Assembly: GCA_963664225.1 (NCBI GenBank)
Contig: OY760937.1
Location: forward strand, 1,312,001-1,376,000
DNA: 64,000 bases
DNA from: Verrucomicrobiia bacterium
GTDB lineage: Bacteria > Verrucomicrobiota > Verrucomicrobiia > Limisphaerales > UBA1319
Direction: 5' to 3'
This document shows, in pieces, positions 2,647 through 45,046 of the stretch. The notes below the pieces were generated by a model. The model was not told the DNA's origin. It saw only the letters and a program-made list of their open reading frames with translations, and made no database searches. The translations under genes and the position numbers were made by a program. Position 1 is the stretch's first letter, and every line of letters starts with the position of its first letter.

Positions 2647-2664
2647 ATGGGGTGTTGACCCCAT
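2647..2664. promoter_or_regulatory. Palindromic box ATGGGGTGTTGACCCCAT upstream of atpD
   Basis: Perfect 7-4-7 inverted repeat; minus-strand TAGTGT (2624-2619) lies 22 bp away; the motif recurs at four other minus-strand promoters. Confidence 0.7.
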
Positions 2665-2772
2665 ACAACGAACGTTTGAGGCCTCCCCTGCAACAAACGT
2701 ATGCCAGTTTGAAAACAGCCGAATCGCATAATTAAAACATGTCCTTTCGACTGAATTAGGTTAGTTTCCGCG

Positions 2773-4062
2773 ATGAGTATGTGCATTCTTACAACCGGAG
2801 CTCCGAAGCGGATCGGCTTCATATCGACCCGCTTTCAAGGCACCGATGGTGTGACCCTGGAAGCCCGGAAATGGGCTCAGATCCTCAAGGGCATGGGGCA
2901 TTCCTGTTTCTGGATGGCCGGCCAGCTTGATGCACCCGCGGAAGTCAGCCAAACCGCGCCGCTGGCCTTCTTCAATCACCCGGAAGTCATGGATGTTCAA
3001 AACAAAATGTTTGGCGTTTCCTGCCGAACTCGGAGCGTTACCAACCAGATTCAGTCCATCAAGGAACATCTCAAGGATGAATTGTATTGTTTCATAGAAA
3101 AATTCCACCTCGAAGTGCTCATACCGGAGAACATTCTTGCCATCCCGATGCATGTGCCGCTGGGACTGGCGGTGACCGAGGTGATTGCTGAGACTACAAT
3201 TCCGGTCGTGGCACACCACCATGATTTCACTTGGGAACGTGAGCGCTTCACCCTCAATGCGGTCAATGATTACCTCCAGGCCGCCTTTCCTCCGCTGCTC
3301 TATGGGATGGAGCACGTCGTCATCAATTCAATGCAGCAAAAGGAACTCGCGCGCCGTCTGGGGATTCCCTCGCAAATCATTCCCAATGTCCTGGACTTCG
3401 AAACCCCACCGCCCGGCCTGGACAGTTATAACGCCGACCTGCGCCAGGAAATCGGCCTGAGCGAGGATGACCATTTCATACTGCAACCCACGCGAGTGGT
3501 CGCCCGCAAAGGCATCGAACACGCTATTGAACTGGTGCGCCGCCTGCGCGAACCCCGCGCAAAACTGGTCATTTCGCATCCGGCGGGCGATGAGGGCAAC
3601 GCTTACATGGCCATGCTTAAGGACCGCATTGCCGACGCGGGCATCGATGTGCGCTTCATCGCGGACCGCGTGGGTGAAGCGCGCGGTGTGAATGCGGAGG
3701 GTCGCAAGGTTTATACCCTGGCCGATGTGTATCCGCACGCCGATCTGGTGACTTATCCCAGTCACTACGAAGGCTTTGGCAATGCCTTTCTGGAGGCGGT
3801 GTATTTCGGCAAGCCGGTTGTGGTAAACACCTACGCCGTGTATGCCCGCGATATTGATCCGCTGGGATTCAAAACGATTGAAATGACCCAACTGGTCACC
3901 CGCGAGGTAGTGGAAGAAACCCGGGAAATCCTGCGTAACAAATCCATGCGAGATGAATGGGCCAGGACCAATTACGAATTGGGCCTGAAGTATTTCTCAT
4001 ATGCCGTGGCCCGCCGGAAACTGGCCGCACGGTTCGCCAATCTTTTCGGCGAGGGAGTTTGA
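2773..4062 (+). CDS. GT4 glycosyltransferase, mannosylglucosylglycerate synthase (MggS)-like
   Basis: DGVTLEARKW, VAHHHDFTWER, FPP, HVVINS, PNVLDF and YEGFGNAFLE; the motif pattern resembles Thermotogales MggS as I recall it. Confidence 0.8.
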   Translation: MSMCILTTGAPKRIGFISTRFQGTDGVTLEARKWAQILKGMGHSCFWMAGQLDAPAEVSQTAPLAFFNHPEVMDVQNKMFGVSCRTRSVTNQIQSIKEHLKDELYCFIEKFHLEVLIPENILAIPMHVPLGLAVTEVIAETTIPVVAHHHDFTWERERFTLNAVNDYLQAAFPPLLYGMEHVVINSMQQKELARRLGIPSQIIPNVLDFETPPPGLDSYNADLRQEIGLSEDDHFILQPTRVVARKGIEHAIELVRRLREPRAKLVISHPAGDEGNAYMAMLKDRIADAGIDVRFIADRVGEARGVNAEGRKVYTLADVYPHADLVTYPSHYEGFGNAFLEAVYFGKPVVVNTYAVYARDIDPLGFKTIEMTQLVTREVVEETREILRNKSMRDEWARTNYELGLKYFSYAVARRKLAARFANLFGEGV

Positions 4063-4072
4063 TTCGCAAACA

Positions 4073-5800
4073 TCAAACATCTTCTTGCAACTTCTGGGCC
4101 ATTTGAGTCTCAGCGCGCAGCAAGTCGTGTAAAGTCACCAACCCCACAGGCACACCTCCTTCCCGATCCAATATCACCACGAATTGTGTGGTGGATTCAA
4201 TCAACAGCGTCTGCAATTCACCGATCGTGAGGTTCCGCAAGCAGGTCGTGGCCGGTTCCAATTTGGGAGTGGGATGCCCGGCGACCACCGCCTCGGCTTC
4301 CTTGCGGGTCAGGATTCCCGCCAACCGGCCATCCTGCACAAAAGGGAATCGCTGATAGGGATGCTGGTTCAATTTCTCTTTTAATGCAGCCCGTCCCAAA
4401 TCTTCCACGGCTGCCACCTGGAAATTCGCGATGGCTGATACGGGCAACTGCTGCCAGCTTTGCAGGTCTCGAGGAGGACGCACATGCTCAATGCGGTGGC
4501 CATCCTGTTCAAGCAAGGCTTCATAAAAGTTATGTCGATTCATGCGTCTGCTGATCGCCTGACTGATCAACGCGCCAATCATGAGTGCCGGCACAAGCGC
4601 AAATTCGTGCGTCATCTCAAAGACAATAAGAATGCCTGTCACGGGTGCCCCGACAACAGCCCCCAGACACGCGCTCATTCCCACAACTGCCAGAGCAAGC
4701 GAATCCGCGTGCGAAACATGCCATTCCAAGCCCATGAGACCAGCCACCGCAACACCAGCCATACCGCCAAAAAACAGGGAGGGTGAGAAAATTCCACCAC
4801 ATCCCCCAAAGCCGTAACAGCTGAATGTCGCCACAAACTTTGTTGCCAATAATACCGCAGCCAACTGCCAGCCGATGTCGCCCGCCAGCGCGCTGGAGAG
4901 GTCGTCGTATCCAAGGCTGAACACACCCAAACGTCCCGTTTGACAAAATACCCCGACGCCCAGGACCCAAGTCACAAGGCCCCCGACAGCAGGGAGCATC
5001 CAGGCTGGCATTTGAGAGTTACGCTTCATTCGCAAGCGCAAGCCAAGTGCGGCACGTTGAAAATACACACCAATCACGCTGGCAATGGCCGCTACGACTG
5101 GCGTCAACAAATAGCCCATCCAGGTTGGTGTCTGCACACCGGAAAGAGTGAACGAGGGTTGCTTTCCAATAATGCCATGCACCACCAACGCGCCCAAAAC
5201 CGAAGCCAGCAGCACCGGCCCGAGATAACGACTATTTAAATCTCCGATGATTTCTTCGAGAACAAAGGTGGTGGCAGCCAGGGGCGTGTTGAAGGCCGCA
5301 GCGAGTCCGGCCGACGCCCCCACTGCCGCCGCAGAACGGCGGTTCTGTTTTGGCTCTCCAGCCAACCCTGCCAGATTGGAACTGATTGCACCAGCCAACT
5401 GCACGCTTGGGCCTTCCCGGCCAAGGCTTGATCCGCCTCCGATGCTGATAATACCAGCGATGAACTTTACCCAGGCCACGCGCCAGGGCACCATTCCAAA
5501 ATCCTTCCAAAAAGCCAACTTGAGCTGGGGAATGCCGCTACCGGATGCTTCGCGGCAGAAAGAGTTCAACAGCCATCCCACCACGAGCGACGACACAACC
5601 ACGATGCAGAAACTGCCAAGGATGAATGTCCACTTTGATCCGTGGGAAAACCTGAGCAATCCAATCCGGTAGAACCAATTCATGCCCAGTTGGAAAAGAA
5701 CGGTTACCACACCAGCAGAGAGGCCGTAAAGACAGGTCTGAACAACCGTCCGTGTTTGTTTGGGCAGCTTCTGAAATAACGAGGCCAGCAAAAATGTCAT
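4073..5800 (-). CDS. ClC family Cl-/H+ antiporter with C-terminal CBS pair
   Basis: GSGIP, GREGP (gating Glu), FVLEEI (proton Glu), GGIFSP, FEMT, CBS-like GILTR/GLVTLHDLL. Start could be 5842. Confidence 0.93.
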   Translation of the reverse strand: MTFLLASLFQKLPKQTRTVVQTCLYGLSAGVVTVLFQLGMNWFYRIGLLRFSHGSKWTFILGSFCIVVVSSLVVGWLLNSFCREASGSGIPQLKLAFWKDFGMVPWRVAWVKFIAGIISIGGGSSLGREGPSVQLAGAISSNLAGLAGEPKQNRRSAAAVGASAGLAAAFNTPLAATTFVLEEIIGDLNSRYLGPVLLASVLGALVVHGIIGKQPSFTLSGVQTPTWMGYLLTPVVAAIASVIGVYFQRAALGLRLRMKRNSQMPAWMLPAVGGLVTWVLGVGVFCQTGRLGVFSLGYDDLSSALAGDIGWQLAAVLLATKFVATFSCYGFGGCGGIFSPSLFFGGMAGVAVAGLMGLEWHVSHADSLALAVVGMSACLGAVVGAPVTGILIVFEMTHEFALVPALMIGALISQAISRRMNRHNFYEALLEQDGHRIEHVRPPRDLQSWQQLPVSAIANFQVAAVEDLGRAALKEKLNQHPYQRFPFVQDGRLAGILTRKEAEAVVAGHPTPKLEPATTCLRNLTIGELQTLLIESTTQFVVILDREGGVPVGLVTLHDLLRAETQMAQKLQEDV

Positions 5801-6018
5801 TGCGCTTACAGTTTCGATCCATTTCACCCTTGTTTTCAACAAGGAATATTCACGGGTGTAAGTCAGATTTCATCTGGAAGGTCTGATTTTCAAAGTTTTA
5901 AGAGGCGAATCTATAAGGAATTTATAAATTCGGATCATTTCGTGCCTGAGCAATGGGGTTTGGGACGTCTTGATTTCCGACAATCCTGATGGAGTGTAGG
6001 GGCGAGAATTCAACTGCA

Positions 6019-43994: not shown

Positions 43995-44638
43995 TCAACC
44001 TTTGACACCCAGAATCATTTCCACCGGAACACACATGTGCTTCTTCAACGCCTTGCTGGATTTGAACCCCGCCTTCGCCAGTGCTTCACGCGCGTAAATG
44101 GTCTGGCAATCGAGAAAATCCGGGATGTGCTTGTGACTCCACTCGAAAACGCCAATGAGCGGGTCGTGCCCTCCCTCCTTCGACATGCCGACCATGAGAA
44201 CGCGCCCACCTGGCCGGAGCGCGCGTTTACATTCGCAAGACAATTTGATATTTCTGGCGTATCGAACAGCGCCAACATCATACTCATAAACACACCGTCC
44301 AAACTCTCATTTGGGTAAGCGAGATGGGCCGCGACCCCACACCGAAGACGGCTGCATTTAAGCAGCTTCGCTTTGGCCAGATTTAGCATCTGGTCCGACA
44401 AATCCAGGCCACACACGCGACCGTTCGTCCCGACGGCTTTGGCCAGCGCCATCAGGCAGTGTCCCGTGCCGAAACCGATTTCCAAAACACTCTCGCCGAC
44501 GTGAGCTTTCAACAATACCAACCCCGCCTTCCACATCAGGGCTTCACTGCGCTCGGACAGCACGTCATAGACTTGGCTGATTTTATTGTAGAATGCCTTA
44601 GTCTGGTCTTTCGACTGGAAGACGCGAAGGATTGCCGG
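43995..44638 (-). pseudogene. Frameshifted paralog of the 8606-9298 methyltransferase
   Basis: ILRVFQSKDQTKAFYNKI..YD.LS.RSEA, LEIGFGTGHCL, FDTPEI, then a frame change near 44240 to LRPGGR..GMSKEG..DP; in-frame TAA upstream. Confidence 0.88.
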
Positions 44639-44760
44639 TTAAGTGCCATTGTTAAAAGCGGATTTCTTGGCGCTTTGCTTTCCAAATCAGCCTCGCACCA
44701 CTTTTCTTACGCGTCCAGCGGGGTTTAGAGGAAGCTTGTTCCCCTGTTGAAACTTTGAAC

Positions 44761-44991
44761 TCAAGCGAGTTTTCGTTCCTCGAGCAATTGCCTCTCGGCA
44801 GCCAGCCAGCACTCCACATCATGCCCGGGCTGTGAACCCTGGCTCACATAACGGGAATAGGCCCTTCTGGCAACTTCGTTTGCAGACGGAACGAAATCAA
44901 TTCCGCCTTGGCTTGGGCTCGTGGCCGAGGCTGGCAGTGATTCGCTGGCCGATTTTGGGTTTTTATCCTGAGAGAATTTATTTCGCTTCAT
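44761..44991 (-). CDS. DUF2934 domain protein
   Basis: EVARRAY...G..PG.D...WL.AE..L. Confidence 0.85.
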   Translation of the reverse strand: MKRNKFSQDKNPKSASESLPASATSPSQGGIDFVPSANEVARRAYSRYVSQGSQPGHDVECWLAAERQLLEERKLA

Positions 44992-45028
44992 CCAGGGAAA
45001 GTATAGACTCTGTAACCGCTCTTCCAAT

Positions 45029-45046
45029 ATGGGGTCTTCTCCCTAC
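45029..45046. promoter_or_regulatory. Box ATGGGGTCTTCTCCCTAC heading the DUF2934-glgP-zwf-ackA run
   Basis: Matches the recurring motif; minus-strand TATACT (45005-45000) lies 23 bp away. Confidence 0.62.

Follow-up and report, generated by a model that had tools for sequence, protein, structure and literature searches.

The element described here is an 18-bp box, with a 17-bp variant, that occurs five times in a 64,000-nt window (the whole stretch of DNA analysed, positions 1312001-1376000 of the one-contig, 5.78-Mb genome of a Verrucomicrobiia bacterium, 56% G+C and 96% complete), and it is probably the operator of RR1, a NarL/FixJ-type response regulator with REC and GerE domains that is encoded outside the window and for which the box is the candidate site. 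The closest described counterpart is DosR/DevR, like RR1 a NarL-subfamily regulator composed of REC and a LuxR-type domain. The excerpted text of PMC2275270 gives the palindromic consensus TTSGGGACTWWAGTCCCSAA for the DosR box, which shares with the present box GGG at half-site positions 4-6 and a WW centre, and differs from it at half-site positions 1-3 and 7-9, that is, at all six. The likeness to DosR sites that an earlier note on this DNA had drawn thus holds for the dyad architecture, GGG at half-site positions 4-6 around WW, as far as the same excerpt (PMC2275270) goes. For DevR, the promoter-proximal site overlaps the -35 position according to the part of PMC3029386 available. Common to the DosR regulon and the one proposed here are reserve metabolism, a P-type ATPase for cations and small proteins of the stress response. 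RR1 is not an ortholog of DevR, however: in a search of the PDB its best solved relatives are LiaR/VraR (E 7e-45), and DevR (3C3W, E 4e-25) also ranks below DesR and NarL. The two systems differ in their kinases as well, which in the DosR system are haem-GAF kinases mediating induction by hypoxia, NO or CO; those found here have PAS or unassigned N-termini, with no GAF domain in Pfam scans of the kinases examined, a result that does not speak to haem binding. From these comparisons RR1 is DosR-like in its predicted working and stands outside the DosR regulon proper.

Three further groups of described systems resemble the present one in part. With NarL/NarP, LiaR/VraR and the LuxR-type activators it has in common the architecture of the regulator, HisKA_3 partners, and dyads made of heptamer or octamer arms with a short spacer, the site comparisons being with the '7-2-7' and lux-box types; the site sequences and regulon contents of those systems are unlike those found here. 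A second group comprises the sigma-B, RpoS and PhyR-EcfG regulons, whose content overlaps with that of the present one in CsbD, YflT, BON, PRC-barrel, DUF2934 and superoxide dismutase, all typical members of general-stress regulons. The switch itself is of another kind, a two-component activator acting with a sigma-70-type -10 here and an alternative sigma factor in sigma-B, RpoS and PhyR-EcfG. The third is the KaiABC-SasA-RpaA system, the nearest analogue for the Kai link, in which a Kai module is likewise linked to a kinase and a regulator; here the three share an operon in related genomes. In cyanobacteria RpaA drives glgP, zwf and gnd at dusk, as stated in the excerpt of PMC5400509. The window clusters a glgP-type phosphorylase, zwf and gnd beside box promoters, which recalls these targets, although here the three are without a box of their own. 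The KaiABC system includes KaiA, for which no counterpart was found here; the kinase is of PAS+HisKA_3 type as opposed to the KaiB-like+HisKA type of SasA, and the regulator of REC+GerE type as opposed to the OmpR type of RpaA.

Verrucomicrobiota are abundant in soil and water, and in a literature search, judged from the result entries, no description of the box, of the regulator or of a Verrucomicrobial general or master stress switch was found. The box is probably the conserved operator of an apparently undescribed but mechanistically ordinary two-component activator regulon. The regulator that docks at it would most likely turn on genes for stress and energy reserves in many Verrucomicrobia of soils. 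Box and regulator together make a testable regulon, in which the operator and the promoter geometry are defined and there are candidates for both the regulator and its kinases.

The box in the window and in other genomes

Genome-wide, the box computed from its copies is an 18-bp palindrome, ATGGGGTG-WW-CACCCCAT, accompanied by a 17-bp asymmetric variant. The pattern ATGGGGT-N4-ACCCCAT occurs in the 5.78-Mb genome in seven perfect and seven one-mismatch copies, where about 0.02 perfect copies would be expected by chance (our own arithmetic from base composition). The variant, ATGGGGT-N3-A[ACT]CC[CT]A[CAT], typically reads GTAGGGTT(W)CACCCCAT towards the promoter and has 13 sites, which brings the total in this genome to approximately 27, five of them in the window. 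The sites form clusters at 1.31-1.39 Mb (the window and its surroundings), 1.63 Mb, 2.26-2.31 Mb and 2.80-2.85 Mb. Enrichment in intergenic DNA was checked for the 14 palindromic sites: by crude calls of open reading frames (ORFs), eight are intergenic and five more are no further than 180 nt from the start of an ORF that was called too long.

The five 18-mers of the earlier note are present at 2647, 29453, 33278, 34363 and 45029 with the letters claimed, all of them 5' of minus-strand genes, and the hexamers that it had pointed out are all on the minus strand, at a distance of 21-23 nt from the edge of the box. Box 1 (2647..2664, no strand assigned) is a perfect 18-bp palindrome, ATGGGGTGTTGACCCCAT, located about 100 nt upstream of the start of the N-ATPase beta subunit, with the -10-like hexamer TAGTGT (2619..2624, minus strand) 22 nt away. 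Box 2 (29453..29470, no strand assigned), ATGGGGTGTTACCCCCAT, has one mismatch to the palindrome and lies 152 nt upstream of the phosphoketolase ORF; its -10-like hexamer, TAAAAT, is at 29426..29431 (minus strand), 21 nt from the box. Boxes 3 and 4 are 17-bp variants on the minus strand, where they read GTGGGATTATACCCCAT (33278..33294) and GTGGGGTTTTACCCCAT (34363..34379); in both only the promoter-proximal arm, ACCCCAT in box 3, is perfect. They are each followed at 22 nt by a -10-like hexamer, CAATGT (33250..33255, minus strand) and CATGTT (34335..34340, minus strand), respectively. Box 5 (45029..45046, minus strand) is an 18-mer with the minus-strand reading GTAGGGAGAAGACCCCAT, a perfect proximal and a degenerate distal arm, and the -10 hexamer TATACT at 45000..45005 (minus strand), 23 nt from the box. 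Across the window the looser pattern ATGGGG-N6-CCC has eight strand matches, compared with a mean of 0.76 and a largest value of 3 in 100 shuffles; the eight correspond to six places, two of which are palindromic and hence counted on both strands. The sixth place, at 7364, was taken as a chance match; it is inside a lactonase-like ORF and without the T7/A12 positions.

The box is conserved in sequence well beyond this genome. In 62 sites of other genomes the four unselected central positions are G-W-W-C, with gc(t/c)...(a/g)gc as flanking letters, and both arms keep their own sequence across genomes, with no compensating changes. The exact consensus 18-mer is present in at least 130 stretches of the genome collection, against about 17 expected by chance (our own arithmetic), and among the matches listed, 62 of 80 loci carry a Verrucomicrobiota-lineage label. 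Of 120 other genomes of the order, 38 have a perfect box, whereas a control with the reversed pattern gave zero in all; of 300 genomes from the rest of the phylum, only 10 have one.

Outside the window, at genome 2222745-2224299 and 2200071, the minus strand carries six or more copies of a separate word, gcttcaATGGGGTattaaag(g/c)gcttccgcgga. The gcttcaATGGGGTattaaag word resembles a repeat array, possibly CRISPR-like and unrelated to the box, and is one source of chance ATGGGGT matches.

The candidate regulator

A Pfam scan of the genes beside the sites located RR1 (REC + GerE) at genome 2265530-2266207, with one box 379 nt upstream and another 107 nt downstream of it; RR1 is followed by genes for a receiver-only protein, a PAS kinase and a hybrid kinase. 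RR1 is the only one of the 13 GerE-domain genes of the genome with boxes closer than 1 kb (322 bp), the next nearest being 10.9 kb away. In sequence RR1 is a generic member of the NarL family, and no NCBIfam equivalog reaches its cut-off for it, the best being MctR with 199.5 bits of the 300 needed. Co-localisation, computed over 80 RR1-ortholog loci from Verrucomicrobiota assemblies (65-78% identity, 453 kb in all), extends to other genomes: 47 of the 80 have at least one box with two or fewer mismatches, and the boxes comprise 35 perfect, 27 one-mismatch and 12 two-mismatch copies. Co-occurrence points in the same direction. With an ortholog defined by E <=1e-70, or as a contig-cut piece of high identity, 32 of the 120 genomes have both the perfect box and RR1, 20 only RR1, 6 only the box and 62 neither, which gives an odds ratio of 16.5 and a Fisher p of 6e-10 with no correction for relatedness. 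The earlier note had proposed a binder of NarL/LuxR type and had seen no cognate regulator in the window; the second point is correct, RR1 being encoded elsewhere, and the first agrees with RR1 being the sole box-flanked GerE gene, whose orthologs co-localise and co-occur with the box. On this comparative evidence a phosphorylated RR1 dimer would bind the dyad ATGGGGTG-WW-CACCCCAT, and would bind the 17-bp variant too, with its perfect arm facing the promoter.

Several observations weigh against RR1 as the protein that reads the box. The co-occurrence statistic ignores phylogeny, 20 of the 52 genomes with an RR1-like gene lack a perfect box, and 6 of the 68 without such a gene carry one or two. 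In this genome no kinase adjoins RR1, and the box upstream of it has a clear -10 on the divergent radical-SAM side and a weak GATGTT on the RR1 side, so that autoregulation of RR1 is not evident here. The gene calls used throughout are crude longest ORFs, and one palindromic site, at genome 3965165, is 401 nt inside an ORF and without a hexamer. Finally, a paralog, RR2 (64% identical, genome 4474338-4474994), could share the sites or compete for them.

RR2, or else an unrelated dimeric helix-turn-helix protein, might in fact be the factor that binds the box, with RR1 merely one of its targets, and we regard this as unlikely, though it is the best of the alternatives. It draws on the presence of RR2 in an operon of its own (within genome 4470605-4476164: PAS-HisKA kinase, REC, REC-HisKA_3 kinase, RR2), on the boxes of this genome flanking RR1 and not clearly lying in its promoter, and on the several RR1-like copies that many genomes hold. 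However, there is no box within 170 kb of RR2, and its recognition helix reads KTVDKYRQ where that of RR1 is KTVEKHRE, a sequence kept in six of seven aligned RR1 orthologs (KTVQRHRE in the other). Moreover, the box tracks RR1 orthologs across genomes, where it stands about 100 nt upstream of kinase-RR1 operons, and no other regulator family recurs next to boxes.

Two overlapping palindromes, GGGGATATCCCC and ATGGGTGAACCCCC, are located after the RR2 operon; ATGGGTGAACCCCC is followed 22 nt later by TATTTT and stands 5' of an ice-binding-like gene. The palindromes at the RR2 locus may belong to a sister regulon with a related site.

In a genome of the same genus (G001, 93% complete), the closest of the relatives searched, neither an RR1 ortholog (best match 45% identity) nor a W-W-centred box was found. 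The absence of both there indicates that the module of box and RR1 is patchy and not a trait of the genus, and, with the sites of the present genome clustered in four regions, the regulon may travel or be lost as blocks.

Promoter geometry

Spacing was computed for 145 non-identical boxes with at most one mismatch, taken from loci of other Verrucomicrobiota genomes and read in both directions (290 in all). In 101 of the 290 directions a TANNNT begins 21-24 nt downstream of the box, with counts of 10, 45, 35 and 11 at 21, 22, 23 and 24 nt, respectively, and only 0-6 at each of the other offsets up to 59 nt. Of the sites in this genome, 12 of the 14 palindromic ones and 11 of the 13 variant ones have [TC]ANNNT at 21-24 nt, the variants always on the ACCCCAT side. 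The same orientation is seen for the variant in other genomes, where the hexamer is on the ACCCCAT side in 27 of 49 sites and on the opposite side in none. The palindrome at genome 2304799 has hexamers 22 nt away on both sides.

The position of start codons gives a second measure. Among the oriented promoters with 170-nt flanks (n = 97), ATG peaks 6-7 nt after the hexamer (29 of the 97), and in 40 of the 97 an ATG or GTG 4-10 nt after it opens a frame of at least 35 codons. Since an ATG so close behind the hexamer would fix +1 independently, it marks the hexamer as the probable true -10. Many transcripts from box promoters appear to be leaderless, and the mRNA of the DUF2934 gene of the window, with its ATG 8 nt after TATACT, is predicted to be leaderless or nearly so. 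Counted from a start site placed in this way from sequence, the box would extend from about -52 to about -35 and be centred on -43.5 or -44.5, close to the -43 of the earlier note. The fixed spacing between box and hexamer, in this genome and in the 145 boxes elsewhere, is consistent with the class II-like activator geometry that the same note had recognised. At the -35 position itself there are only T(A/G)GC-type letters, and a poor -35 is expected of an activator-dependent promoter. We infer both binding and activation from this arrangement: centred about 43.5-44.5 bp upstream of the start site and overlapping the poor -35, the box would allow RR1 to recruit sigma-70 RNA polymerase to the TANNNT -10 in a class II-like manner.

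The overlap with the -35 is also where repressors act, and RR1 at the box could instead block the -35, the genes being de-repressed under stress. We consider this improbable, more so than a different binding protein, because phasing is needless for a repressor and the spacing from box to -10 is fixed within one or two bases over the 145 boxes in many genomes; the asymmetric variant is found in one orientation (27 versus 0), and the -35 letters are merely of T(A/G)GC type. Such phasing is needed by activators that contact the polymerase, such as DevR, with its proximal site overlapping -35 in the excerpt of PMC3029386.

It is very doubtful that the ACCCCAT arm is the -35 of an alternative sigma factor of, for instance, the extracytoplasmic-function (ECF) type. 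An ECF-type sigma gene (Sigma70_r2 + r4_2) is indeed encoded in the window at 5989-6660, and in the variant sites the proximal arm alone is well conserved. Most sites are two-fold symmetric, however, the palindrome at genome 2304799 even having hexamers on both sides; arm and hexamer are 21-23 nt apart where such a promoter would have 16-17, the hexamer, TANNNT, is of sigma-70 type, and no box is near the sigma gene. Equally remote is a reading of the palindrome as a repeat of REP/MITE type dispersed in the genome, or as an RNA hairpin that terminates or processes transcripts. Although a 7-bp GC-rich stem could form and the box at 29453 is 84 nt past the copA stop, no T-tract follows the palindrome, the arms are conserved in sequence and not by compensating change, the box is upstream of the -10 and hence outside the transcripts that it precedes, and the flanks are unrepeated save for one segmental duplication.

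Genes behind the boxes

With RR1 acting at the box as an activator, its regulon of about 27 sites in this genome would comprise small general-stress proteins (DUF2934, PRC-barrel/BON), superoxide dismutase, ion pumps, signalling genes and an ATP-yielding catabolism of reserves. The ion pumps would be the N-ATPase and the copper and cation P-type ATPases, and the reserve catabolism would run through phosphoketolase and aldolase, in other genomes also acetate kinase and transaldolase. The window holds the energy-reserve and ion-pump side of this regulon, and it also displays the oriented 17-bp variant.

The predicted target of box 1 is the N-ATPase operon, whose first genes occupy 475..2545 on the minus strand and which continues past the left end of the window. 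Profile matches confirm the beta subunit (854-2545, minus strand; TIGR03305, 894 bits, cut-off 752) and the epsilon subunit (ORF 475-1104, minus strand; TIGR03166, 167 bits, cut-off 100) of an alternate-type F1F0 ATPase at the head of the operon. Downstream of box 2, five closely packed genes on the minus strand form unit 2 (23836..29301): phosphoketolase (26797-29301), a STAS/SpoIIAA-like protein (26445-26807), a class I fructose-bisphosphate aldolase (25323-26420), a PMI-type cupin (24622-25320) and a HAD/PMM-like hydrolase (23836-24618). Unit 3 (29554..33225, minus strand) is downstream of box 3 and consists of an 80-aa ORF (32983-33225), a cytochrome c (32311-32877), a DUF302 protein (31905-32291) and a CopA-type copper P-type ATPase (29554-31842), all on the minus strand. 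Box 4 precedes unit 4, a PRC-barrel protein (33447..34226, minus strand), and the sole gene directly behind box 5 is unit 5, which encodes the 76-aa DUF2934 protein (44761..44991, minus strand).

A string of genes co-oriented with unit 5 is located downstream of it (34423..44563, minus strand), in the order methyltransferase, phosphorylase, HAD hydrolase, ADP-polyphosphate phosphotransferase, gnd, zwf, DUF1737-like ORF, Na_Ca_ex-like protein and acetate kinase. The alpha-glucan phosphorylase is at 41155-43701, the ADP-polyphosphate phosphotransferase at 39589-40452, gnd at 38142-39677, zwf at 36610-38145 and acetate kinase at 34423-35661, all on the minus strand, with the small DUF1737-like ORF and the Na_Ca_ex-like membrane protein, also on the minus strand, between zwf and acetate kinase. 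Gaps of 198 and 344 nt part these genes from box 5, and box-less sigma-70-like promoters are present in the gaps, before the methyltransferase and phosphorylase genes. The glgP-type, zwf and gnd genes have no box of their own, nor an ACCCCAT arm with four or fewer distal mismatches; the only other hit in the window of the search for weaker boxes, at 38900, is inside gnd. Control of the string by box 5 is conceivable solely by read-through, and is unproven. Of the putative regulon proposed in the earlier note, the N-ATPase, phosphoketolase and copper ATPase units are directly behind boxes, and the link to glycogen breakdown is left unproven, as box 5 directly precedes only DUF2934. A scan of 29000-45300 for promoters and terminators gave no excess over shuffles (7 versus 7.7; 18 versus 18.8), and the two sigma-70-like sites before the methyltransferase and phosphorylase genes were its whole yield.

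Part of unit 3 is duplicated in the genome, window positions 31905-33300 corresponding to genome 2852750-2854146 with box, leader, 80-aa ORF, cytochrome c and DUF302. The second copy has outer-membrane efflux and CusB/HlyD genes in place of the CopA ATPase. Because of this segmental duplication the duplicated box sites are not independent.

Beyond the window, Fe/Mn superoxide dismutase and a PRC+BON protein are among the putative targets in this genome, as are PAS hybrid kinases, a radical-SAM/B12 enzyme, a 2907-aa protein, an MlaA-like protein with a type III polyketide synthase, and the copy of the cytochrome c/DUF302 module with its CusB/OEP efflux genes. Content in other genomes was surveyed over 141 crude ORFs flanking the consensus box at 80 loci, in both directions and with probable chance loci kept. 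Reserve and sugar metabolism is represented by XFP, acetate kinase, class I aldolase, transaldolase, a 6PGD-type NAD-binding protein, PMI, GT4 (2) and a glycogen-binding carbohydrate-binding module (CBM), and the membrane and lipid families by P-type cation ATPases (4 entries, 3 genes), fatty-acid desaturases (2) and PqiA. The stress group contains DUF2934, CsbD, BON, YflT, DUF3300 (2), ice-binding-like proteins (2), Hsp70 and Clp_N, together with an RRM protein, old yellow enzyme (2) and radical-SAM/B12 proteins (2), and the signalling group PAS kinases (7), HisKA_3 kinases (4), receiver-only proteins (7) and REC+GerE regulators (2). By the families encoded, the box-flanked genes are those of a putative general-stress or dormancy regulon, and the general-stress content suggested in the earlier note finds support in the genes that flank the box in other genomes.

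Kinases and the KaiBC link

The operon partners of RR1 suggest which kinases may act on it. In 26 RR1-ortholog loci, of whose 122 ORFs the 56 adjoining the regulator were scanned, a HisKA_3 kinase, or its ATPase part, is encoded upstream of RR1 on the same strand in 25. Two arrangements recur. In type 1 (15 loci) an ORF of about 232 aa with HisKA_3 only is followed by a kinase of about 385 aa, and in type 2 (5 loci) there is a PAS-HisKA_3 kinase of about 406 aa. The box is about 100 nt before the first gene in type-1 loci, and such a position 5' of kinase-RR1 operons implies autoregulation there. No ATPase domain was found in the type-1 ORF of about 232 aa (around 1083-1843 in L010, L013, L018, L020 and others), which may be a kinase-dead twin. 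In this genome a type-1-like kinase (54% identity to that of L010) is encoded beside a box and a receiver gene at 2.294 Mb.

The PAS-kinase loci connect the box to Kai proteins. A perfect box stands in this genome 123 nt before an operon of kaiC, kaiB and a PAS-HisKA_3 kinase (genome 2301162-2304676), and this kinase shares 63% identity along its entire length with the kinase next to RR1 in locus L014, and 57% with the one in L025. In other genomes kinase and regulator share an operon with kai genes, as kaiB-kinase-RR in L021 and kaiC-kaiB-kaiB-kinase-RR in L042, and in L025 a KaiB fragment is present at the N-terminus of the kinase. In L014 and L019 there is no kai gene in the short upstream stretch available, and the Kai link is thus seen in three of the five PAS-kinase loci (L021, L042, L025). 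The kinases of RR1 would be cytoplasmic HisKA_3 histidine kinases, one of them encoded in the box-preceded kaiC-kaiB-kinase operon. KaiC, with 585 aa, is the sole double-domain KaiC of the genome, and its best PDB matches are 8DBA and 8FWI, which we take to be the hourglass KaiC (long form) of Rhodobacter, with the alignment reaching the C-terminal extension. No PF07688 match to KaiA was found in this 96% complete genome, while the Synechococcus control was positive.

We tentatively suggest, as a possibility well short of an even chance, that this non-phototrophic soil bacterium has a KaiBC hourglass timer that works without KaiA, and that the output pathway of the timer ends, on the DNA, at the box. 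KaiC-KaiB would act through the PAS-HisKA_3 kinase and the NarL-type regulator on the approximately 27 promoters, a functional analogue of the SasA-RpaA output assembled from other protein families. As to the signal and the physiological role that we infer, a set phase or an energy shortage would bring about a switch to resting metabolism, in which ATP would be drawn from glycogen and polyphosphate via pentose-phosphate, phosphoketolase and acetate-kinase steps, and in which the resting cell would be guarded by small stress proteins and by the N-ATPase and P-type ATPases as ion pumps. The operon link to KaiC-KaiB offers a route to what non-cyanobacterial Kai timers control, and the targets in the window suggest that the output of such a timer might be survival on stored glycogen and polyphosphate together with ion homeostasis.

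A leader element in three units

Three of the units in the window share an additional element in their leaders, all on the minus strand: TTTCTCAAA is found at 29381..29389 in the xfp leader of unit 2, at 33205..33213 in unit 3 and at 34290..34298 in unit 4. The element consists of a GC-rich inverted repeat followed by TTTCTCAAA(T/C)(G/C)CC and lies 62-63 nt after the box, which corresponds to transcript positions of about +28 to +36. In its strict form, CCCATAGC-N52-68-TTTCTCAAA, the pattern occurs three times in this genome and in one of 40 relatives, at the same distance, with a control of zero. Among the 97 oriented promoters of other genomes the element is not enriched, and its independent copies are three only. 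Its role might be that of an RNA leader or of a further operator, and it is also present at genome 2854051 and 1629662.

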